Shown here piece by piece: positions 1 through 17,761 of a stretch of DNA of 18,160 bases (its first letter is position 1; each line of letters starts with the position of its first letter). A model generated the notes under the pieces. That model saw nothing but the letters and a program-made list of their open reading frames with translations, was not told the DNA's origin and did no database searches. This DNA comes from an uncultured Nitrososphaeraceae archaeon (lineage in GTDB: Archaea > Thermoproteota > Nitrososphaeria > Nitrososphaerales > Nitrososphaeraceae): positions 1 to 18,160 of the forward strand of contig CAWGVG010000058.1 of assembly GCA_963825865.1 (NCBI GenBank), given 5' to 3'. Position numbers and translations under genes: made by a program.

Positions 1-394
1 AACTAGTATAGAATATTTACTTTTAGTGTCATTTTGTTTACACATATACATAATATCGAATATTATAATATTCAAAAGCATATTACAAAAGGATTTGAAA
101 ATTTGCAAGACTTGTAAATGAAAGTAATTTCTTTCTTGCTATTTTGATTTATCGCACATTTGTATGTATAGTCTATAGGTACTTTTTAGTATGATAGTGA
201 CACAATACTCTCTTTATTCCATCATTAGCACAGTATTATAGAATTATTTACAAGGTTACAGCCCCAAAATCATTTTCCTACCGAGAAGACGTGGACAAAT
301 CAATGCCATATTATCCAGCTAGGAATTTCATTATCAATTAACGAACGAACAAATTACTATGATTAAAATTGTGGAAGGATCCTAATTAAGAGAT

Positions 395-778
395 TTAATT
401 GTTCATCGACTTGGCGACAATTTCACCTGTTGCGCTATCTATATAGTAAGTATAATTATTTTTTTTAACTTCCCATGAAAAATAATTTGCTGTTGTTATT
501 GTTGTCTCCGTTTTACCAAGATATTTCCCAATCGAATTAGAATTTATATTAGACTCAAACAAGGATCCATCACCCTTAATGTAGACGTATCTTATTGAGA
601 AATCGTTTATATTATATCTGGTGAGGTTCTGTTTTTGCGCAACAATCGCAACTGCTGCTTCAGATGATAATGGTGCAGAAAATAAAGCCGGTATTTTTAA
701 AGAATTTTGTAATCCTAAGTATACTAAGACTGTCATAGCTATACCAATTGCAACTAAAACGACTATTTTCTTGTCCAT
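395..778 (-). CDS. Membrane-anchored hypothetical protein with a PepSY-like C-terminal motif
   Basis: 127-aa ORF. Basic N-terminus followed by a hydrophobic helix (MDKKIVVLVAIGIAMTVLVYLGL). The C-terminus WEVKKNNYTYYIDSATGEIV resembles the PepSY W.V...yIDa.TGei motif. Confidence 0.7.
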   Translation of the reverse strand: MDKKIVVLVAIGIAMTVLVYLGLQNSLKIPALFSAPLSSEAAVAIVAQKQNLTRYNINDFSIRYVYIKGDGSLFESNINSNSIGKYLGKTETTITTANYFSWEVKKNNYTYYIDSATGEIVAKSMNN

Positions 779-1420
779 CTTTATTATTTTATTATCGCGC
801 AGAGCAAAAACCCTTTACTTTATCTTTTATATATCTATCGACTCGTTTTGTCGTATATTGATAATAATGTTTGTTGGTTCGCAATAACATGTAAAAATAC
901 ATAGAATATAAACTTGTTGCAACTGCTAAAAAATAAATCGGCCAACAACTAAAGGTAAAGCGACTGAAAGTATGACATGTCAAACCTGTTGCGACGCATA
1001 TATTTACATTAAAAGTCAAATATAAAAGATTTCACCACGTAAATGATCCTAACTAACTATAGGTTAATAACCATGCTATTACTATCCGTGTATGTTAATA
1101 GATAATATAATAGTAAGGATGAGTAATTACATCAATAACAGGCCTCAGCCCGGCGGTTCGATGATCTATACACTTATGACTATTTACAGTCTAGTCCCAT
1201 CTTTAGATTACTGGATTTTGCTTCATTTTTTACCCATATAAACAAGTATCTTGCCAAATGGAATTTTTTTGGCAGTAGTTCACGCGACACAATAACATTG
1301 CAACAACCAGGTGACAAACGTGAATCTATTGGCTACATAGAAAGCTAATAAAAATTGAAGCAAAGAAATATAGAAGATATGCCCATATATGTTCATCAAC
1401 TCCATTTGCAAGTATTATTT

Positions 1421-1434
1421 GAAAACCTTATATT
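1421..1434 (+). promoter_or_regulatory. Putative BRE/TATA box of the P-II gene
   Basis: GAAAAC-CTTATATT lies about 24-30 nt upstream of the ATG at 1458, typical spacing for an archaeal leaderless transcript. Confidence 0.45.
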
Positions 1435-1457
1435 GTAAGATCCTTTTATAGCAAAAC

Positions 1458-1805
1458 ATGAAACGTGTAGAAGCTATTATCGGTAGCGAGAAGGTATTGG
1501 CTGCAAATGAAGCATTGAAGAAGGCAGGAGTGGGTGGATGTACTATTCTTGATGCAAAAGGTAGGGGCAAAGGAGAAAAACCGATCGTTGAAACCGACAG
1601 AGGAACCGGAAGATTTACCTCTGAATTTTCAGTCAGAGCCAATATTCTCCTAATAGTGGAAGACTCTGAAGTAGATAAGGTCATCAAGACGATAGTGGAC
1701 ACAGTAAGCACTGGCTCAGCAGGAGATGGCAAGATTTTCGTCTCTCCAATCATAGAAGCAGTGGATATAGGCACAAAGAAACGAGGAGAAGTAGCTATCG
1801 TTTAA
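1458..1805 (+). CDS. glnB: Nitrogen regulatory protein P-II family (GlnB/GlnK-like)
   Basis: 115 aa. MKRVEAII N-terminus, KGRG at the T-loop base, and the B-loop signature TGSAGDGKIFVSP. Confidence 0.93.
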   Translation: MKRVEAIIGSEKVLAANEALKKAGVGGCTILDAKGRGKGEKPIVETDRGTGRFTSEFSVRANILLIVEDSEVDKVIKTIVDTVSTGSAGDGKIFVSPIIEAVDIGTKKRGEVAIV

Positions 1806-1842
1806 AAAATTAAAAATAACGATAAGACTTATACATCCATTA

Positions 1843-3300
1843 TTATCTAAAGAATTTTTTCGTCTCTCCAAGAGTCAGCACTTCTGTTGCTGCGATCTTC
1901 GCAACTATAGGTAAATCACATACCACCTTCCCAATAGATAAGCAATGACGCTGGGGCAACGTTCTAACTATTGAACGGATAGTATCATTATCTGCTAATG
2001 ATACTTTTGATATTTTATCCAAGTCTGCCTCATTAATAAAATTGAACAAGAATATATTGTCTACTTGCCGGTAAATTCCATCGCCTATAGCATCTGGCTG
2101 GTTTGTGATAAATGTTGTATAGATTCCGAAATGTCTCATTCGTGTGATAATATCTTCCCAGTATGTGTCTCGAATATAGAGGTGGGCTTCCTCTGCAAAT
2201 AAGAAGATCGGAGGAATCATGAACTTCTCGAGCAAATCCACTAGTTTACTCAACACCAACTCTACAATCATTTTTCTTACGACCGGCGTTACTTTACCCA
2301 TATTAATTACCATTGCAGTGCCTTTGCACTTTTTTGAAATCACTTTTTCAAACCTTAATTCCTCATCATCATTACTCCTGTCTAAAAATAATCTAGACGA
2401 CTGGATTACATGGAATCTAGAAATAAGTGCATCCCGTACAAGCTCATTAATATTGCAAGTATTTATCGCGTTACCCAGAGCTCCAATACCCAGTATTTGT
2501 TTAATTTCAAGTGAGTCCCAGATTCTGAAGAATTCACGTAATGAAGCTGCTGGCATATCAAGTGCATTTTTGAGCATGCTAGAGATAGCAGCCTTGCCAC
2601 AGTAATCAAGGGAGAATTTCAATCCATTTCCTGGTTCAAGTACCATTATCTGATCGGCTATTGAAGACGGAGAGCCATCCTGGTTCCATGCCAGTCCCCC
2701 ATATTCATTATTCAGATCAAATACAACGACGAATGCTCCATGTTGTACTAACGTTTTAACAAGCACCTTGGAAAGGTGTGACTTACCAGATTCTTTTTTT
2801 CCAGTAATAATATTTAACTTGCCATCGAGGTCCTCAGCATAGATTTCAAAATCTTCATTATCTCCTCCGGCCTTTCCAATAGGAATAGGAAAAACCCCCC
2901 TCCTTCCTAGAAACAAACCTAATTCCGAAATCTTCAAACGCCTTACTTTAGAATATACTCGAGATGGAAGCCATGTAACATCGCTTGATAATTTATCTGA
3001 CAAATCTATGGCTGCTCTTATTTTAGTTCGAAACAGTCTCGCATCTCTGAGCATCCTTGATAAACTTCCAATGTCGAGAGGATCGTGTAGATTTTCTGTA
3101 CTTGATGCGGTTACCACCTCATCTTTTACAATATCTTCAATCAAAGATTGGGAAGAAAGATATTCTTCATCATATATCTGAACAATCATCTTTCTATTTG
3201 ATTTTTCATCTTCAATTAACAAATAATCACCCTTACCAGCTGTATCTGTTATCATTGCCAACATGACAATTTCATTACCATTTTTTGATAAGATCTTCAT
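1843..3300 (-). CDS. herA: HerA/FtsK-superfamily ATPase (DUF87), HerA-like DNA translocase
   Basis: Intact 485-aa ORF. N-terminal HAS-barrel-like region (GDYLLIED..MIVQI), Walker A GKKESGKS, VVVFDLNNEY, Walker B IFLFAEEAH, RMRHFG..FITNQP. The start overlaps the nurA stop (ATGA). Confidence 0.88.
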   Translation of the reverse strand: MKILSKNGNEIVMLAMITDTAGKGDYLLIEDEKSNRKMIVQIYDEEYLSSQSLIEDIVKDEVVTASSTENLHDPLDIGSLSRMLRDARLFRTKIRAAIDLSDKLSSDVTWLPSRVYSKVRRLKISELGLFLGRRGVFPIPIGKAGGDNEDFEIYAEDLDGKLNIITGKKESGKSHLSKVLVKTLVQHGAFVVVFDLNNEYGGLAWNQDGSPSSIADQIMVLEPGNGLKFSLDYCGKAAISSMLKNALDMPAASLREFFRIWDSLEIKQILGIGALGNAINTCNINELVRDALISRFHVIQSSRLFLDRSNDDEELRFEKVISKKCKGTAMVINMGKVTPVVRKMIVELVLSKLVDLLEKFMIPPIFLFAEEAHLYIRDTYWEDIITRMRHFGIYTTFITNQPDAIGDGIYRQVDNIFLFNFINEADLDKISKVSLADNDTIRSIVRTLPQRHCLSIGKVVCDLPIVAKIAATEVLTLGETKKFFR

Positions 3301-4333
3301 ACCGTGATTGAACCAAGTAAAGTTCTACGAATATCTTCAGATGCAATCTCTGTCACATTATAGTTGCTTAATACATATCCTCTAAGGCAGGATACCTCAG
3401 TGTGAGTAAAAGTCGAAATGTGATGCGCAAGTCGCAATGTTTCTGGATATCCTGCTGCCTATTGAGTCATTTCCAAGTAATTTTCCAAGTGACTCATCTT
3501 TATCACCATTAACAGTAACAACATCTACACGCAATATATGACTATTATTATTTCCAAACTTTACAAGAAGGTTGTTGCCTATACTGTTTCGAATCAGGCT
3601 TTTGATAATCAACTCAACATCCATATATGCAGGTCCACGGACCTTTGTAAGGGGATTTGAAACTCTGTCAAGAATTTTGAGTCTAGTATTCTTGCTGATT
3701 CCAATGATAGAGTTTTTGTAAAGAGAACAATTCTCTAACACATTTTTAATACCCTGATTTTTGTCCTCAAACACAGATGACTTCAAGGACCCATCGACTA
3801 GGATTATAGATTTCTTAAATTGCTTTGAAAGTTCCATCTGAATTGCTCTCTCAACTCTGACTCTGATCAATCGTTTTGCCGAATCACTGTCTAACAAGAC
3901 AAGCTTTGCTAGTCTATGTTCAAGTTCAGAACTTCTAATAGTTTCATTGCTCAAGTAAAACAACACAGGTCCAATTTTGAAATGCATTAGCGCCTGACCG
4001 CTAATAGCTATTGCAATTCCGCTTTTTACGGCATAAAGAGAACCCTCTTCCGTTTCCCCGATTTGGATGCTGCTGAGAATCGATCGCAGATACAATTGTA
4101 TTATCTTGAATCGGCTGAATAGTTGTTATTGTTGTTGTACAATAAGGATCGGACTTGATGCCCCAGCCTTCAACTGGAATAAGACTTCTCTCATCCATAC
4201 TAAAAATGATCTTTTTGCCATTAAGCGCATCGCTTAATCTTGATGACAGACATTGATCCAGTGACTGGTTAAAAATATGTCCAAACTCATTGAAGTCAAT
4301 ACCACAGGAAGGAAGATTTAATTGCGTGGCCAT
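3297..4333 (-). CDS. nurA: NurA-family 5'-3' nuclease (rebuilt across two +1 indels at about 4075 and 3459)
   Basis: Joining frames gives ..VSAIDSSSIQIGETEEG..IILVDGSL..NDSIAAGYPETLRLAHHISTF..LLGSITV*, which contains the NurA AIDxS, DGSL and GYPxxLxxAH motifs. The stop at 3297-3299 overlaps the herA ATG. Start 4333 is preferred from TATA spacing; 4360 is the alternative. Confidence 0.85.
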
Positions 4334-4402
4334 GTTGCTCAACAATATAATACCAGGCATATTTATTAATGTTGTGCAACATGGACAATATATTCAGCAA
4401 CA
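4333..4402. promoter_or_regulatory. Divergent promoter with TGTTG-N2-CAACA palindromes flanking a TATA box
   Basis: TGTTG-CT-CAACA at 4333-4344, ATGTTG-TG-CAACAT at 4369-4382, and degenerate TATTC-AG-CAACA at 4391-4402. Minus-strand TTAATAAAT at 4361-4369 lies about 28 nt upstream of the nurA ATG at 4333. Confidence 0.6.
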
Positions 4403-4444
4403 AGTTTATGTGAAAGCAAATTGTCAATGTTGTATGTCCCTCCT

Positions 4445-4963
4445 ATGACCGAACGGATTCCAACTTCACCCATTGAAGTTAAGATTAAATTAAAACATCG
4501 GGACTGGGAGGTTGAAATAACCTGTCTGGAGAGTAAAATTAAACAAGTAGTAGAACATGTTCTTTCTAGTATTGATACTTCCACTACCAACGATCCAAGT
4601 TGGAATGCTCAGATTACTGAATTGAAAAAAGAGATAGAGTCTCTGAAATTACGAATTAATTCAGGCGATATCAGCCAAACACCGACAATAAATGCCATAG
4701 AATTACAACGCAAAGAGATAACAAAGGGAGGAATGACATGTAGAGGTATACTTGAAACGTTATGGTATGAAGGATATTTTGGAACAGATAAACTATTGGG
4801 AGAGGTTCATGAAGAGATATCAAGACGTGGTTACAATTATGACAGAACAGCGGTATCGCATTCACTTACAGATATGGTACGAGAAAGTATTCTAAGCAGA
4901 ATTGGAACCATGAGAAATTATCGATATATTCAGAAGAGACCACCATCTGAATCGCCACTATAA
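4445..4963 (+). CDS. Hypothetical protein: N-terminal beta-beta-alpha module, coiled coil, C-terminal winged HTH
   Basis: ORF 4421-4963, with the ATG at 4445 or 4427 the likely start. Coiled coil QITELKKEIESLKLRI. wHTH-like LWYEGYF..KLLGEVHEEISRRGY..TAVSHSLTDMVRESILSRIG..YRY. Confidence 0.78.
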   Translation: MTERIPTSPIEVKIKLKHRDWEVEITCLESKIKQVVEHVLSSIDTSTTNDPSWNAQITELKKEIESLKLRINSGDISQTPTINAIELQRKEITKGGMTCRGILETLWYEGYFGTDKLLGEVHEEISRRGYNYDRTAVSHSLTDMVRESILSRIGTMRNYRYIQKRPPSESPL

Positions 4964-5566
4964 CGATGATTGTAGTGAGGTTGTTTTTGCTCTTTTAGAT
5001 AGAGTAGATCCTAACCAGTGAATACCTAATGTAGTAATCCTATAAACGACAGCAGAGTCATCCTTTGTATTATCTCTTGCTACATATCCTGCCTTTACCA
5101 ATTCAGACAGCCTCGAACTAACAGATTTTGATTTGATCGTCATTGCAGATTGGATTTTAGATGCTTGCATTGCATCATCTGAAATTTTGCCAATATCCTT
5201 TGCAATTTTTGATGCTATCAGCTGGAGGGCAACCATCTCTTTATCAGATAATTTTTTCATTCCTGATTCTTCATCTAACACAGGAATTACTCTAGGACCT
5301 TCTGGAGTAATTTTGATTAGATTTGAATATGTTTCTATAAGCTCAGTCGCAGCATAATTTAATGAGATTTTCTTTGCCAGGTCAATCGTTGGAAGCTGTT
5401 TTGTTAGAAAGGTTATGACAGATGTCATGACTGATTGTGCAGAGCCATTGAACTGTACTTTTATATCTCCAATAGTTATCGATACATTAACATTTTCATT
5501 ATTATTATTAATAGTATTACTGTAGTTATAGTGATTATTATTTTTATTTTCAGACATCTTTATCAT
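4958..5566 (-). CDS. Putative transcriptional regulator with a C-terminal winged HTH
   Basis: 202-aa ORF (alternative start 5557). Asn-rich N-terminus, then VNVSITIGDIKVQFNG, and a classic wHTH KSVSSRLSELVKAGYV...YRITTLG. Confidence 0.82.
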   Translation of the reverse strand: MIKMSENKNNNHYNYSNTINNNNENVNVSITIGDIKVQFNGSAQSVMTSVITFLTKQLPTIDLAKKISLNYAATELIETYSNLIKITPEGPRVIPVLDEESGMKKLSDKEMVALQLIASKIAKDIGKISDDAMQASKIQSAMTIKSKSVSSRLSELVKAGYVARDNTKDDSAVVYRITTLGIHWLGSTLSKRAKTTSLQSSL

Positions 5567-6190
5567 CTACTACGATGAAAGTATTTTGGATATTATCAAT
5601 ACTTTCTTCCTCCGATAGCAAGTGTAGTTGCAAAGTATATACATATTCTTCTTTTAAAAATAATGGTGTAGATATAACGCATAGATATAGCATATATATA
5701 GAAGGAATTCGCTGAATAGACTCAACTTTTTCATCGCAATCATCCATAATCGCGGATCTCGAAAGGACAGTACGTCTACACATAACCATAATCTTTAACA
5801 AATCCGTTATATCAGTATAGTTTATTGCATTGTATAAATTACTTATGAAAAGAATATTCATTTATAATGATTAATACAAACAAGATGCAAGAAATTTAAG
5901 GTTCCTATTGGAGAAGACTTTTTCTAAGATACTGATTTCCTCATAGTGCATAGCAGCAAATGTTTAATAATGATGTCGTTTACACTTGCGGCCATTACTA
6001 CCTTACGAGATTTACGATAATATAAAATATCGAAATTACAGTTATAGAATCAGGTATTGAAAGATGATAGCATTTATCACTAAGATTAAGCGGCTACAAA
6101 TAAGAGCATAATCTCGATCTATAAATATTTCATTTCCTTTTATAAAACCATAAATACATAGACATAATAAAATTATTATTCTGTATATTT

Positions 6191-7257
6191 ATGATGTCAG
6201 AAATTAAATCTTCTATTTCTGAAAAATTACATAGCTACTATCATTATATGAATTCTATTGTTGTAATGCCCGATTTCTTTGTTGATCGTATTATAAAATT
6301 AAAATCAAAAGAGGAATTCTTTCATACCTTAACTGAAAAAACTAAGTTTGGCGCGGCAGTGTACAGTGGCATCCCCACTGTCGATGTCAAAGGAGGAAAT
6401 GCAGTAAATGTTGCATATTGCCTTGCTAAACTGGGAGTAAAAGTTACGCTGTTTACGATTTCGGATGAAACTGGATCAGCCATGCTTAGATATATATTTT
6501 CGAGGTTTGGAGATAAAGTAAATCTTCGAATTAAAAATGGAAAGCATGGCCTTACGACGGCATTTGAATTTCTAAATGAAAAAGGTTTTAAAGCAAATGT
6601 AATGGTAAGTGACGTTGGAGATAATATAAATTTTGGTCCTGATAGGATTAATTCAGATGAGGACCTAAAAATTTTGAAAAATGCCGATGGAGTAATAGTT
6701 GTCAACTGGGCCAGCAACTTAAAGGGAACACAATTAGCAGAATATGCCTACAGAAATTCACCAAAAGCTCTTCACTTCATTGACCCTGCAGACATTGATA
6801 CCAGAAAGCAAGAATTTCGAGACTCATTAGCAAAGATTGCAGATATTATTGATATTTTGAGTATAAACGAAAATGAGTGTAACTCTCTAGCCGGCTGCGG
6901 GCTTTGATTCCCTTATACCATCAAATAATTATAGTATAGAGGATGTGAGAAACACGAGCAAAGATACTCGCAGATAAAATTGGAATCAGTATTGATTTGC
7001 ACACGAGAGTAGGTGCCGCATGGTCAAATGGTAGAGAGACTGCAATTGCTCATGCAATCCAAGCTGAAGCAACGACCTTGACTGGGGCTGGTGATTCTTG
7101 GGACGCTGCGGATATTATCGGCTATCTGGCGGGGTTTGATACTAGAGAAAGATTAATATTCTCTAATGTATGTGCCTCACTTTACATTAGAAATCCATAT
7201 ACAGAACCAGTATCTGTAAATAATGCTTTTGAATTATTAGAAAGAATTGATGTATAG
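6191..7257 (+). CDS. PfkB/ribokinase-family carbohydrate kinase (rebuilt across indels at about 6893 and 6957)
   Basis: GGNAVNVAYCLAKLG N-terminal signature, FIDP, SINENE, and the C-terminal TGAGD anion-hole motif. The bridging frame reads AAGFDSLIPSNNYSIEDVRN..AKILADKIGISIDLHT. A probable compensating indel pair at about 6352/6364 would restore FGGGSVRGI. Confidence 0.87.
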
Positions 7258-7322: not shown

Positions 7323-7566
7323 GTTGATTTCGGGATTGATGAGATCGATAACTATCAACTTTGTGGTTAAATCCTTTATAGATTACCAGAATGCACAGAT
7401 AAGATACTAATTGGTGCAATGGAAGGAAGGAGATGTGATAAAGAGAGAGATTGGTATAGAAACAGAAGAGGAGGAATCTCCCCAGTCTGCAGACAAATTC
7501 AACAAACTCAAAGTAAGAAAGGACCAAGTTCCAATAAGACCACTGACTGAAGGAATATTAGAATGA
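7323..7566 (+). CDS. Small hypothetical protein, fragmented by indels
   Basis: Open frame 7411-7566 reads LVQWKEGDVIKREIGIETEEEESPQSADKFNKLKVRKDQVPIRPLTEGILE*. Protein-like pieces upstream in other frames read DFGIDEID, STLWLNP and RLPECTDKIL. The start is uncertain. Confidence 0.5.
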
Positions 7567-8171
7567 CATATGTTACTAACCATTAGTATCGTAATAATAT
7601 CGAAAATAAATTTAGGATGTTTTATCAAAAAAACCAGTTTCAATAGATTATTTGATTAAAAGGCTAAGGGCAGAGATAGATTAGTAGTAGGTCGAATCCA
7701 TTATTCTTATGAGAAGTGGTGAACATACGGTGAAAAGAAAAACAGCCCTCATAGCCATTTTAGAATATTCAAGTGAATAACGAAGATGAGTCCTACTAAT
7801 TTAAGAGGTCGAGAGCCGCACGATTCATAATAAAAGAGGTTTGGCAGATCAGTTAATACAGATCAGATAATAAAACACAAGATGTAGTAGGTGTGTCGTT
7901 CCTAAAATACCGACTAATGAGGATAAGAAAACTGACTAAGAATAAGATTTATGTTCTTATCCGTTATCTTTTATTTTTATATATCAAGTTTAAGATTAGG
8001 TTTGGGTGGTATTAAGCGAAGGGCAGAGAATATATACTAATCTTTGCATTGATTGAGACTATAACTGACTAAGACCTTCATATTTATCTATAGTGGAATT
8101 TATCTTTTGTTTAATTACATTTATAATTACATTCTCTACATAGTGTGTTTTTGTAGATAGTCAATACTAAT

Positions 8172-10796: not shown

Positions 10797-10862
10797 TAAT
10801 GCTATTTAGTGTAACAGAAACGGTATTACTAATAATTTATCAGAAACATATTGCCTCAGATA
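10797..10862 (+). repeat. 66-bp direct repeat, copy A
   Basis: 61/66 identical to 15040-15105 without gaps. Exact 35-bp core acagaaacggtattactaataatttatcagaaaca at 10814-10848. Confidence 0.92.
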
Positions 10863-12564: not shown

Positions 12565-14136
12565 TTATCCAAGCTGATCAAAAGGTAAGCCCGCTCGTTT
12601 GTTCTTTCTGTTTTGATTAGGAAGAATTCCACGGCCTATAAATACATCGCGTATTACCTCTTCATTACGACCTTGATTCAAATTTTTATCCGTGGTAATT
12701 AGCGCTTTTGCTGCGTTTTCAAATGTGGCTGTCCTAGATAGTAGAAAGTGATGTGCAATTACAAGTGTGTCAGTAGTTTTACGACCAAGAGTGGCTCGTA
12801 TTTCCCACAAGCATGCTGACCATATCTCCCCATCGTCATGTGGCTCATGAGTCAAGTCTTTTGGATATTTCTTGTTGCTATCCAATCTTCTTAAGCATGG
12901 CGGCTCAGCTCCACTTTACCAAGTTGCATCCCAATTGCCAAGCGTAGGTCTCATTCCTAGTGGTTTGGTTTCAGCGAAGAAGCTTGCAGCATTGTAGTCG
13001 CCGAAGCCTTCACCCATTGCACTTCCTTCTTCATGTTGACCCCAACCAGGCACTTGATCATCTTGAATAGCATGACCATATTCATGAAGAATAATCTCAG
13101 CATCTTCAGCATCGTCAACTCCTCCTGTACCGAAAGTCAAAGACTTGGTCGCTGGACTGTAAAAAGAATTGTCATCAGTTATTCCATCGATATTTACTTC
13201 GATCGGATGATCGAGGACATTGTTAAAACCAAGTTCCTGAATATGCCGCTTGCACTCTGTCGATATGGAAATAGACCATTACTTCCTTAAATGCACGATC
13301 CTCTCTGTTAAAGAGAAATTGTAAGCTCGTTCTTTTAACCCTGTTTGGTGTTGCACGAGGTACTAACAAAAGGCCCATCAAGCATACCTGTATCCTGCAA
13401 GTCTCGGAGAATCACTTCGGAATAAGCAGCTGCAGGAATTTGGGAATTATCTTCTAAGCTCGTATTGTTCAGAGTTACTACAGGGCTAGGATCGAATATT
13501 TTTCCTTGCCCATCCTTGTATTTTAACTGGTTAGTCTTATCCAAGACTGAACCATTTATGGCATCCAAATAAATCCTCCATTCAGCTGAGCGGCTTACTA
13601 GTCTTAACGATAACCTTCCATGCTAAAGTGGGAGTACCATTATGAGGAAAATAAACCAGCTCGTTATGGAGCACTTCATTGGTACTGTCGCTAGCAGCTC
13701 TGCTGCCTTCAAGCGCTCGATTCTTGGCCTCATCTGCAGACAGTTCCTTTGGAGCAGAGCTGTTTCCTTAGTTCTCTCCTCTTTCTTCTTGGACTTCTCT
13801 ATGATTGTTTCTGGAAACTAGATCATTATTGATATTATATACTCTACCCTCTTTATCAATATCCACCCTCACCCATGCACCGGATATTGGCTTACCTTTG
13901 TGTTGTTGCTGATACAAAACATGACTACCAAGGATACTTTTCTTAACCTTGTCAAATTTCAACTGAGATAAATCCGTACTAATCTTGAGATCTGGAGCAA
14001 CCTTCTTTAGCATAGATTCTGCAATTAGTTGTGGATCTTCCTTACTTGAGTGTGATTCAATATCATATATTCGCCGTGGAACATTGTATTGAGGATGTTT
14101 CTCAACTTTTGCCTTTAAGCCTTTTATTTTAGCCAT
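12565..14136 (-). CDS. M36/M4 (fungalysin/thermolysin-like) Zn metalloendopeptidase with FTP and PepSY propeptide; about five indels and one in-frame stop (possibly a pseudogene)
   Basis: FTP domain HVLYQQQHKGKPISGA, PepSY LAWKV..WRIYLDAINGSVL, DNSFYSP, zinc motif HEYGH, third ligand in MGEGFGD, and EPHDDGEIW. Indels at about 13815, 13762, 13590, 13358 and 13250; TAA at 12916-12918. SD-like GAGGAG at 14144-14149. Confidence 0.85.
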
Positions 14137-14893: not shown

Positions 14894-15205
14894 ATGGTCG
14901 CTTTCAATTAAATTCAAGATAGATCGTATTATACTCTACAGAAGACAATAATGAATTCCCACTACCATTTTATAGGACACGTCGCTGCTTCATCTTGGAA
15001 ATTCTGTTTTGAGAGAGGACCGGATTTCAAATGCATTAATAATGCTATGTTGTGTGACAGAAACGGTATTACTAATAATTTATCAGAAACAGGTTGCCTC
15101 AGATATTTGTGGTAAAAGAAGACGGCAGTATGGAAGAGTGGAAAACATGCTGCATTACGGGAACTTGAAAGAACTGGTGTCATACGTGTGTCACTTACTC
15201 ACACT
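14894..15205 (+). pseudogene. Remnant of an unknown Cys/His-containing protein gene
   Basis: A single frame reads MVAFN*IQDRSYYTLQKTIMNSHYHFIGHVAASSWKFCFERGPDFKCINNAMLCDRNGITNNLSETGCLRYLW*KKTAVWKSGKHAALRELERTGVIRV, with two in-frame stops. It contains repeat copy B. Confidence 0.35.
15040..15105 (+). repeat. 66-bp direct repeat, copy B
   Basis: 61/66 identical to 10797-10862. Exact core at 15057-15091. Confidence 0.92.
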
Positions 15206-15428
15206 AAGGAGCAATATGTATAAACTCATTTAGGATTTTATCATTAATTTCTAATTTCTCATTTGAACCTCTTATCGCTTGATATAATTCAGACTGCTTC
15301 CATAAGTTCTCAAATATAGCAACATAAGATAAAACACCTGCTTTACTATTTGAGTAAGTTGATAATCCTATAGCTTCAAAAGTTATTTTTGAATCATCTC
15401 TTATCTCCATTACCAATGTGGATCTTCT
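15204..15428 (-). pseudogene. Internal fragment of a Nitrososphaeraceae-type sensor histidine kinase
   Basis: LVMEIRDDSK.TFEAIGLSTYSNSKAGVLSYVAIFENLWKQSELY..NDKILNEFIHIA is the segment that normally leads into the H-box (IAAHELRTP). Here it stops just before the His. Confidence 0.75.
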
Positions 15429-16011: not shown

Positions 16012-16061
16012 TTCATAACAAGTGTTTATAACTGGTAACCCATTCATAACGGGTTATGAAT
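16012..16061 (+). promoter_or_regulatory. Thermosome promoter: TATA box plus a 20-bp palindromic operator candidate
   Basis: TTTATAA at 16025-16031. ATTCATAAC-GG-GTTATGAAT at 16042-16061 overlaps the ATG. An extra half-site TTCATAAC lies at 16012-16019. Confidence 0.6.
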
Positions 16062-17761
16062 TCTTCTGAACAATTATTTGGTGAAGGTGTTAAGCGTAGC
16101 AATGGAGATCAGGCTCGTAGGTATAATTTACTTGCTGCTAGACTCATTGCAGATCTTATTAAAAACTCATTTGGTCCAAGAGGTATGGAAAAAATGTTTA
16201 TCGATATTTTAGGAGAGGTTACAGTGACAAAAGATGGTGCAACATTGTTACGTAAAATCGATGTTGAGCATCCTGCTGCAAAAGTATTGATAGAGGCTTC
16301 AAATGCAGTGGATAACGAAGTAGGAGATGGAACCACTTCAGTAGTTCTTCTGGCAGGAGCTCTTATCGAAAAAGCTGAAGAATTACTAAACATGGGTATT
16401 CGTCCTGTTACTATCTTAGATGGCTATCTATATGGTTTAGATAGTTCACTAGAAATTTTGCAGTCTATTAGCCAAGGGTTAAATAACACTGATCGAAAAG
16501 TTATGGAAAAGTTAGCTAAAGTGTGCCTGGGATCAAAATCAATTTCTTTAATGATAGGAGAAGAAAATACAATTGCAAAATTCATAGTCGATGCTGTTTA
16601 TACTATTGCAGATTTTGCTAATAACCAAGTTAATACTGATGATATCAAGATCGAAGAAAAGATCGGCAATACAATTGATACTATGTTAATTAAGGGAACG
16701 ATAATTGACAAAACGATTGATAATTCTGCAATGCCACGAATGGTTGAAAAAGCAAAAATCCTACTTATTAATGAGGATCTAGAACCAAAAAGGACAAAAA
16801 TAGATGCCGAGATTCGAATCACTTCACCCCACCAGATCCGCTCATTTCTTGATGAGCAATCAATGATAGTTAAACGAAAAATCCAGAATATAATCGATTC
16901 AGGAGCTAACATTGTAATTTCACGTAAAGGCATTAGCAACTTTGCGCAATATCACCTAGCAAAGTCAGATATTGCATCGATACGGAGAGTAAAGGAAACA
17001 GACCTGCAATGGATTGAAAAAGCCACTGATGCAAAATTAGTTGTAAATCTAGATAATATTTTCAAAGATCAGCTGGGCTACGCTGAGAGAGTATATGAAA
17101 AATCCGTTGGAGAAGACAAAATGGTTTTTATTGAAGGATGTAGAAATCCCAAATCTGTCACTGTTCTTCTAAGAGCAAACTCAAAAAAGTCTCTTGACGA
17201 ATACCACCGTTCAGTATTAGATGTTATTTCAGTTCTAAAGGATTTCATTATGAAACCATTCATAATTGGGGGAGGAGGTTCCACAGAGGCAATCATTGCA
17301 AATAAAATTAGATCTAAAGCTAATTTAATTGAAGGTAGAAAACAAATTGTAGTTCAAAAATTTGCCGAGGCACTTGAAGAGATCCCGCTGACTATTGCAC
17401 AAACGCAGGGATGAACACCATTGATACAATTACACAATTGAGGTCAAAATACTCTACTTATCCTAATGGCAAAAAAATCAATAGATGGTATGGAGTGGAC
17501 GCTATAGAAAGGAAGATATCTGAAATGTTTTCTTGTGATATTATTGAGCCAACTATAGTCAAAGAACAGATTCTTAAAACGGCTGTAGAAGTAACCAATC
17601 TGTTAGTTCGTGTAGACGACGTACTAATGGCTAAACCTGTCATGAATACACATACACATGAGGACGGTACAAAGCATTCCCATCAGGGAGGAGACAACAA
17701 ACACGACCATTACTTTGACAAATTGGGTAAGCAACAGCGACCTATGCACCATTACTATTAA
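16056..17761 (+). CDS. ths: Group II chaperonin (thermosome subunit paralog) with His-rich C-terminal tail; one missing A at about 17403
   Basis: GPRGMEKM, VTKDGAT, HPAAK, EVGDGTTS, NPKSVT, GGGGSTE, IIEP..VKEQ, LVRVDD. Adding one A in caaacgca restores IAQNAGMNTIDT and joins ORFs 16056-17414 and 17411-17761. Confidence 0.94.

Follow-up and report, generated by a model that had tools for sequence, protein, structure and literature searches.

Contig CAWGVG010000058.1 of an uncultured ammonia-oxidising soil archaeon of the family Nitrososphaeraceae, an 18,160-bp stretch of DNA with 35% G+C that was analysed over its entire length (referred to as the window), belongs to a genome of 4.98 Mb in 62 contigs (82% complete) and carries a nurA-like nuclease gene and a herA-like ATPase gene next to a divergently oriented gene encoding a winged helix-turn-helix (wHTH) protein, wHTH1. 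The start codons of nurA (ATG at 4333, minus strand) and of the wHTH1 gene (ATG at 4445) are separated by a gap of 111 bp, in which two perfect TGTTG-N2-CAACA palindromes lie on both sides of a TATA-like box. A preceding inspection of the letters alone, in the following termed the sequence-only reading, had described this gap as roughly 110 bp long and had proposed that its palindromes are operators of a regulated DNA-processing module, which is evaluated here.

The nurA-like gene (3297..4333, minus strand; Pfam NurA) is followed by the herA-like gene (1843..3300, minus strand), which encodes a 485-aa ATPase of the FtsK/HerA superfamily. As the ATG of the latter overlaps the nurA stop codon (ATGA), both genes are regarded as one operon. 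On the other side of the gap, the wHTH1 gene (4445..4963, plus strand; 172 aa), whose product is the candidate autoregulator binding the operators, converges with a second wHTH gene, wHTH2 (4958..5566, minus strand; about 199–202 aa). In the window, nurA reads in three frames, with breaks near 3458 and 4075, each of which corresponds in alignments to one extra base compared with a second copy of the locus or with an overlapping contig end. Contigs from an independent run (X13) omit exactly one base at each of the positions 3458 and 4075, and nurA orthologues are unbroken in related loci. Other window genes are split in the same style, namely those for a thermosome subunit (16056–17761; 452 + 116 aa), a pfkB-type kinase (6191–7257; 238 + 86 aa) and an M36-type peptidase (12565–14136; several fragments). 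Because the independent contigs lack both additional bases and these other genes are split alike, the two nurA frameshifts are assembly errors. Hence, nurA runs from 3297 to 4333, and the assembly seems to contain many single-base indel errors.

Paired palindromic sites at a shared promoter

The palindrome of operator site 1 (CATGTTGCTCAACAATAT, 4331..4348) reads TGTTG-CT-CAACA (TGTTGCTCAACA, 4333–4344) and is fused to the nurA start codon. Operator site 2 (ATGTTGTGCAACAT, 4369..4382) possesses 6-bp arms, with the core TGTTG-N2-CAACA at 4370–4381. Both palindromes are thus present as given in the sequence-only reading, including the longer arms of the second. Adjacent to site 2, a row of follow-on half-sites in direct orientation (4386..4404, plus strand) consists of CAATATA and then CAGCAACAAG, and includes a previously noticed degenerate third copy (TATTCAGCAACA, 4391–4402) that deviates by two mismatches in its left arm. 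In addition, a half-site ATGTTG is found at 4427–4432, and a copy with one mismatch (TGTTGTACAATA, 4133–4144) is located inside nurA.

The exact motif occurs twice in the window at an expectation of 0.03, and two or more occurrences were not obtained in any of 200 shuffles. When one mismatch is allowed, four sites are counted versus 0.73 expected, a number reached in one of 200 shuffles. Genome-wide (5 Mb), seven exact sites compare with three for the reversed control. Four of these seven represent both copies of the locus, the second copy being situated at the end of contig C46 and 82% identical to the window over 4.6 kb, with both palindromes exactly retained (C46:77425 and 77459, 34 bp apart). 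The other three lie inside apparent coding sequence, as judged by eye, and two of them mirror one paralogous stretch. Allowing one mismatch yields 191 genomic sites versus 138 for the reversed control. Neither the exact nor the one-mismatch scan revealed further paired sites in this genome beyond the locus and its second copy, and the lone one-mismatch sites near gene starts are devoid of a partner site and look like chance matches. One of these one-mismatch motifs without partner site is found 21 bp upstream of a replication factor C small subunit-like gene (C46:53127). In the relatives, 0–11 exact sites per genome were counted, with 0–5 for the control, which are background numbers outside this locus. 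A search with a word built from the 6-mers enriched upstream of genes gave no matches.

The TATA-like box (TATTTATTAA, 4360..4369) precedes the nurA ATG (minus strand) by 27–36 nt and may serve both directions. Due to this short distance, the leader of the nurA-herA transcript is probably very short. For comparison, TATA-like words in this genome peak between –39 and –27 from the start codon (1419 well-defined gene starts). A second TATA-like element, TTTATG (4405..4410, plus strand), precedes the wHTH1 ATG by 35–40 nt and thus falls on this genome-wide peak. Its TTTAT is kept in 10 of 11 aligned genera, and it is the probable proximal wHTH1 promoter in Nitrososphaeraceae. In lineages with a short gap, the shared box is the only TATA box in front of wHTH1. 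Relative to these elements, site 1 covers the nurA start codon and the presumed transcription start of nurA, while site 2 abuts the shared box on the side of the transcription factor B (TFB) recognition element (BRE) for nurA and is placed just downstream of the same box in the wHTH1 direction. This geometry fits the bracketing of the nurA TATA box by the two perfect sites noticed in the sequence-only reading. A repressor acting bidirectionally would be expected to have operators flanking a shared TATA region on either side.

Conservation and co-inheritance of the module

For assessing conservation, 20 larger loci were compared at the level of the order, Nitrososphaerales, and 80 named loci within the family Nitrososphaeraceae, 79 of which were usable. 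Scanning 270 bp upstream of wHTH1 with up to one mismatch detected at least one site in all 79 family loci and at least two in 74 of them, with 57 loci showing the same offset of 37 bp between site 1 and site 2. The background in the remainder of the same 79 loci is 0.012 sites per 270 bp. An alignment of the intergenic regions from 11 genera starts with an invariant CATGTTG..CAACAATA, continues after a variable segment of about 13 bp with an invariant TATTAAT.TTG.GCA and ends with CAATATG.TCAGCAACAAG-TTTAT. Hence, the columns of site 1 and the TATTAAT of the shared box do not vary across the 11 genera, and site 2 shows invariant TTG, G and CA. In the 57 loci with 37-bp spacing, site 1 columns are conserved to at least 90%, and the letters of the spacer between the arms are variable, which fits a dimer reading the arms.

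The minor elements behave differently, and the sequence-only reading stands here in part only. A full palindrome at the position of the third copy is found in 6 of 69 anchored loci with up to one mismatch and in 32 of 69 with up to two, its right arm (GCAACA) being the sole conserved part. The half-site at 4427 recurs in 4 of the 69 loci and the intragenic nurA copy (up to one mismatch) in 3, so that both, albeit present in the window, look like chance or lineage-specific features.

Conservation is not restricted to the family. Sites are retained in the other families of the order, where arm variants preserve the symmetry, as in TCTTGCGCAAGA and in a palindrome whose arms measure 9 bp, and some lineages show 9-bp tandem units or duplications at the follow-on half-sites. 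Outside the order, a wHTH1 gene was detected in 64 of 201 sampled genomes of the phylum. Among the 11 best of these loci, it is divergent from nurA and/or herA in 10, and a TTG-N2-CAA element is found near the nurA start in 9. In all nine of the 11 loci whose extracted region extends to the promoter, a TATA-like box (examples are TATATAAA and TATTTAAG) stands immediately before a TGTTG site, more precisely before TGTTG/TATTG-YGCA, and further CAA-type units follow. Atlas rows suggest, as a lead only, that the lineages concerned include Bathyarchaeota. Taken together, the region almost certainly harbors a conserved cis-regulatory element, and the proposed shared promoter with repeated palindromic operator-type sites is real and deeply conserved (79 loci, 11 genera and beyond the order). 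For archaeal operators, it is unusual that individual bases are conserved beyond the limits of an order.

The genes flanking the element are similarly stable in their arrangement. In all 20 order-level loci, the herA-like gene adjoins the nurA-like gene (the latter detected by tblastn in 19) and the pair is divergent from wHTH1, whereas wHTH2 adjoins the module in 17. The wHTH1 gene was found in 31 of 41 relatives, counting the genome of the window itself. Within the family it is present in 17 of 24 and, among other families of the order, in 13 of 16. All 10 relatives not encoding wHTH1 also lack the herA-like gene (E ≤ 1e-20), and 9 of them lack wHTH2, the exception being a genome of 75% completeness. 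Hence, HerA-like, wHTH1 and wHTH2 are present or missing together. The genomes devoid of the module include a closed one of 1.6 Mb and one of 3.2 Mb that is 98% complete. In one family of the order (f13), comprising many closed 1.6-Mb genomes, wHTH1 is nearly absent, with two weak matches in 26 genomes, and this family would serve as a natural knock-out group for comparison. The one f13 member examined (G036) is also without the herA-like gene and wHTH2.

Candidate regulator, proposed mechanism and rival explanations

The AlphaFold2 model of wHTH1 comprises an N-terminal beta-hairpin and helix, a long coiled-coil helix and a C-terminal winged helix (predicted local distance difference test score, pLDDT, above 90). 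Its best Foldseek matches are wHTH domains of Fur, Zur, BlaI, ArsR and RTP, at weak E values of 0.04–0.3. No Pfam or NCBIfam family was matched, with Penicillinase_R (PF03965) not reaching E ≤ 0.01. Sub-threshold Pfam similarity to RTP was seen in 23 and to Penicillinase_R in 9 of 32 family members (best E 0.0015), and in one Atlas cluster Penicillinase_R is assigned to 17% of the members. A total of 1128 homologues was collected, nearly all of them termed "hypothetical" where named, including NVIE_013310 of Nitrososphaera viennensis. The putative recognition helix of wHTH1, YDRTAVSHSLTDMVRE, is invariant or nearly so from Nitrososphaeraceae to distant lineages of the phylum sample, as much as the motif core.

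For wHTH2, the AlphaFold2 model shows a similar N-terminal beta-hairpin and helix, followed by a winged helix resembling MarR and AspA. Foldseek aligned it with YusO and MftR of the MarR family (7e-4) and the centromere-binding protein of pNOB8 (1e-3), the matches to MarR-family chains ranging from 7e-4 to 1e-2 at a root-mean-square deviation (rmsd) of 13–15 over the whole chain. Against Pfam MarR, it scored 20.5 bits at a cut-off of 24.6. Sequence searches against solved structures produced chance-level matches only for both proteins. In the models, the beta-hairpin and long helix occupy residues 11–47 of wHTH1 and 25–67 of wHTH2. A profile comparison of the two proteins by hhalign, the top pairing of which had an E value of 0.24 and a probability of 0.3, was not significant. 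From the models, this shared N-terminal element could be a common docking or dimerisation module. An S24 peptidase domain was not found in either wHTH1 or wHTH2 with Pfam and NCBIfam models, and the LexA model reached 14 bits versus 111, covering the HTH part only.

The palindromes are very likely a protein operator. As to the protein that binds, wHTH1 is favored because its gene is adjacent to the sites in every locus and its recognition helix is invariant, while wHTH2 relocates and its own promoter is mostly without the motif. The wHTH2 gene can be elsewhere: at least three genomes (G019, G002 and G029) carry it on other contigs, and in a fourth (G025) about 10 kb of the same contig separate it from the module. 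Within about 400 nt upstream of wHTH2, TTGNNCAA was absent from the window and from three of the four relocated copies, the fourth (L042) showing one distal match at –161. The adjacent wHTH protein that the sequence-only reading had envisaged as controlling dimeric repressor thus finds an obvious candidate in the locally encoded wHTH1, divergent from nurA in every one of the 20 order-level loci and in all but one of the 11 outside the order, and the binding and repression also assumed there are treated here as predictions. We regard wHTH1 as the moderately probable binder and repression as the likely net effect.

From this arrangement we infer that a protein binds the sites, that it is wHTH1, that it represses and that the promoter is inducible. 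The 111-bp region would function as a compact bidirectional archaeal promoter with its TATA-like box flanked by (A)TGTTG-N2-CAACA(T) operators. A dimer of the divergently encoded wHTH1 would bind the palindromes, and further wHTH1 copies might occupy the follow-on CAAYAW half-sites. Bound to site 1, wHTH1 would cover the start codon and the transcription start of the nearly leaderless nurA-herA operon, and at site 2 it would cover the BRE side of the nurA TATA box and the early transcribed region of wHTH1. Occupancy would then block TFB and the TATA-binding protein (TBP) or RNA polymerase in both directions, so that wHTH1 would repress itself as well as a second, Mre11/Rad50-independent NurA-HerA-like nuclease-ATPase pair until a signal releases the repressor. 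To this complete picture, a local and autoregulated wHTH1 repressor controlling both transcription units via paired operators, we would give about an even chance.

Several points weigh against it. The similarity of wHTH1 to known repressor families stays below every curated threshold. By fold (MarR/AspA-like), wHTH2 is an equally good DNA-binding candidate, and it is co-inherited. The recognition helices of both proteins are unchanged across the arm variants, so that covariation cannot pick the binder. Finally, a site directly upstream of BRE and TATA box can also activate in archaea. In view of these points, wHTH2 or a mixed complex as binder remains the main rival. Such a reading would also comprise an unlinked factor as binder, with wHTH1 being the regulated target or a subunit of NurA-HerA. 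The MarR-like helix-wHTH-helix fold of wHTH2 (Foldseek E 7e-4), its co-inheritance with the module even when unlinked and the similar beta-hairpin and helix opening both proteins, albeit not significant in the profile comparison, speak for it. On the other hand, wHTH2 is not always adjacent and mostly lacks the motif upstream of its own gene, as outlined above, and the symmetry of the palindrome favors a homodimer over a hetero-oligomer, leaving this alternative unlikely on balance. Somewhat less likely still is wHTH1 acting mainly as an activator or dual regulator, with site 2 recruiting TFB and TBP to nurA-herA and site 1 being responsible for fine-tuning. Archaeal activators such as Ptr2 bind at the BRE-side position that site 2 takes next to the nurA TATA-like box. 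However, the location of site 1 over the nurA start codon and presumed start speaks against this reading, and lineages with a single TATA box place the TGTTG array downstream of this box towards wHTH1, which is a repressor position.

The remaining alternatives attribute the conserved letters to functions other than a promoter-bound regulator. It is quite improbable that the machine itself uses the array as a site in cis, be it for loading or recognition by HerA-NurA or in the manner of a centromere, with the wHTH proteins as adaptors and regulation as a by-product. Such a role would be compatible with the match of wHTH2 to the pNOB8 centromere-binding protein (template modeling score of 0.81 on the target), the sub-threshold RTP matches of 23 of 32 wHTH1 members, the several tandem half-sites with a period of 9 bp and an N-terminal element in both wHTH proteins that could dock on one partner. 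Nevertheless, the paired array is found at only one locus per genome, and it keeps a fixed position, exact to the base, relative to the TATA-like box and the start codon, for which promoter control is the simpler explanation. Even less credit is due to the assumption that the letters are basal elements (BRE, TATA box and initiator) of two strong promoters lacking a dedicated regulator. CAACA does occur directly upstream of AT-rich boxes at three places in the region. However, a motif model obtained by expectation maximization from the 1419 upstream regions of this genome yielded TTTATATA, with a median start at –33 and without a CAACA-like BRE. Hence, the palindromic motif is not a generic promoter element; moreover, its exact form occurs only seven times in 5 Mb, and the arm changes in other lineages are symmetric. 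Least credible of all is a pairing of the two palindromes as RNA or as cruciform DNA. A single-strand fold does join site 1 with site 2, and the minus strand at 4320–4400 folds with z = –2.61 (2 of 200 shuffles fold as well). However, such a fold is the automatic consequence of having two copies of one palindrome. Spacer letters are complementary in 0 of 57 loci, and on the plus strand the folds stay within the usual range (z about –1.1). Two spacer bases are also too few for a hairpin loop, and an Rfam search gave no relevant match. In addition, neither mRNA is expected to contain both sites because the TATA-like box lies between them.

Compared with characterized regulators, the predicted wHTH1 repressor has features of BlaI/MecI/CopY as well as Fur/ArsR repressors, which are likewise small wHTH proteins encoded beside their target. 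The dimer is predicted for wHTH1, and the short inverted repeat with a two-base spacer corresponds to the arm separation typical of BlaI and CopY operator boxes. In contrast to these families, similarity is sub-threshold, a sensor or protease partner is not evident and, other than in BlaI-type proteins, the predicted dimerising part of wHTH1 is N-terminal (beta-hairpin and helix, with a coiled coil in Nitrososphaeraceae) and not C-terminal. Archaeal repressors occluding BRE and TATA box or the start site include MDR1, LrpA, Phr and Lrs14. With these the locus would share sites overlapping the presumed start and abutting the TATA-like box as well as autoregulation, which is proposed here. It differs by the protein family and by one TATA region for two divergent units with operators on both sides. 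The pNOB8-encoded AspA from Sulfolobus, which binds a palindrome upstream of its own operon, superposes with the winged helix of wHTH2 at an rmsd of 2.1 over 93 columns. However, in contrast to the plasmid system, the locus studied here is chromosomal and syntenic, ParA/ParB genes were not seen beside it and wHTH2 has an extra N-terminal domain.

With respect to the signal and the range of control, the sequence-only reading had considered an inducible DNA-damage or anti-invader switch. Nothing points to such a signal, and models of defense systems give weak and partial matches. In PADLOC, HerA-like weakly matches defense HerA models (3e-11 over 90 residues) and the wHTH of wHTH2 weakly matches Csa3/CARF-associated wHTH models (1e-6), while NurA and wHTH1 remained unmatched by the PADLOC defense models. 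The possibility that the motif recurs at repair genes was not borne out either, as upstream of the canonical herA-mre11-rad50 genes and the canonical nurA the best matches show three to four mismatches. With paired sites at one locus and the canonical repair promoters devoid of the motif, an SOS-like network is argued against. A palindromic operator before DNA-processing genes and before the gene of the regulator itself is reminiscent of LexA/SOS, from which the locus deviates by having no regulon and no peptidase domain on either wHTH protein. The module is a candidate one-locus switch and not a LexA-like regulon. A further-reaching and doubtful scenario is that the four genes inherited together encode an autonomous, signal-gated machine for DNA processing, in which wHTH1 and wHTH2 would dock on the HerA-like/NurA-like complex via their N-terminal beta-hairpin and helix. 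The array would then be both operator and recognition or loading site, and a signal from DNA or an invader, sensed by the complex, would titrate the wHTH proteins off the promoter. If true, archaea from Nitrososphaeraceae to other orders of the phylum would possess a feedback switch for a nuclease-translocase that works independently of LexA.

A second NurA-HerA-like pair and further features of the window

The target of the proposed regulation deviates from the well-known end-resection proteins. Pfam NurA (PF09376) aligns over positions 3–250 of 254 with the intact orthologue from locus L021 (41.1 bits, cut-off 21) and gives 27.5 bits on the window fragment. Pfam DUF87 matches the herA-like product with 35.1 bits (cut-off 23.2) and the L021 orthologue with 38.5 bits over positions 34–219 of 220. 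The HAS-barrel (PF09378) was not matched in the HerA-like protein of the window or that of L021, although a divergent barrel may be present, and the NCBIfam HerA equivalog models scored about 27 bits at a cut-off of 800. In the same genome, a canonical herA (DUF87 plus HAS-barrel, 29.3 bits), followed by mre11 and rad50, is located on contig C9, and a better-scoring nurA on contig C33. Because the canonical set lies on these contigs, the window genes are taken as a second, divergent and Mre11/Rad50-independent pair, which, judged by these family scores, is not the canonical end-resection pair. Like the canonical HerA-NurA of Sulfolobus and Pyrococcus, it combines a NurA nuclease with a HerA/FtsK ATPase in an operon whose stop and start codons overlap. 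However, its linkage is to two wHTH genes and not to mre11-rad50, its HerA-like protein is without a HAS-barrel match and far below the equivalog cut-offs, and 10 of 41 relatives lack the whole module. The conserved neighbors found by tblastn with the window proteins in the 20 order-level loci include the wHTH genes and a gene for a P-II protein, the latter being a neighbor of the herA-like gene in at least 12; linkage with mre11 or rad50 was not found.

In three soil RNA libraries, contigs of at least 99% identity match parts of herA, nurA, wHTH1 (4591–4960) and wHTH2 and leave the intergenic part uncovered, although DNA carry-over is possible and transcription starts, strand and level are not readable from them.

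To our knowledge, few cis-regulatory elements and regulator-operator pairs are described for ammonia-oxidising archaea, and we know of none for DNA-processing genes. In the literature that was searched, neither the motif nor these wHTH families are described, matches to the motif string being unrelated. The search also gave no mention of NVIE_013290 to NVIE_013320 or of transcription start sites in Nitrososphaera viennensis, and nothing linking Nitrososphaera, winged helix and DNA damage. Papers on NurA and HerA in ammonia-oxidising archaea, supplements aside, list genes only. A canonical NurA-HerA-Mre11 cluster is described in Nitrososphaera, with an operator and wHTH genes unmentioned in the available excerpts of that paper (PMC13707971). 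The locus now provides a predicted operator defined to the base, which is fixed in at least 79 family members and recognisable beyond the order, a candidate regulator with an orthologue in a cultivated strain (NVIE_013310) and, as a defined target, the second NurA-HerA-like pair, which has been lost en bloc in entire lineages. This makes testable how nuclease-helicase genes are switched in the absence of a LexA-type system and what purpose a second NurA-HerA pair has, with a reach limited to a local switch and not extending to a global damage regulon.

Among the other open reading frames (ORFs) of the window, orf103 (5550–5861, minus strand; 103 aa) is placed upstream of wHTH2 and overlaps it. 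It has no family match and, since a counterpart is absent from all 20 related loci, it was not counted as part of the module and is likely spurious or lineage-specific. A 119-aa ORF (1415–1774, minus strand) runs antisense to the P-II (GlnB-like) gene (1458–1805, plus strand). Its apparent conservation mirrors that of P-II, and a true gene is unlikely here.

The second copy of the locus spans C46:73118–77738, corresponding to window positions 1–4636, and comprises P-II, herA, nurA and the start of wHTH1. Its intergenic region is closer to that of another genus (L027) than to that of the window, and the final 230 bp or so of C46 are nearly identical to the window except for indels, so that this may be a chimeric contig end. 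The other end of the same contig, C46:1–4059, is the reverse complement of window positions 1–4057 at 99% identity, a dovetail overlap that would join both contigs and from the end of which the second copy, in inverted orientation, is about 69 kb away. Repeated sequences are found elsewhere in the window as well. Stretches of about 90–230 bp at 7375–7690 and 15220–15418 recur in 10–20 copies on many contigs (70–94% identity) and look like dispersed repeats or small mobile elements. A 66-bp direct repeat (92% identity) occupies positions 10797–10862 and 15040–15105, and its 33-bp core is also present on contig C3.

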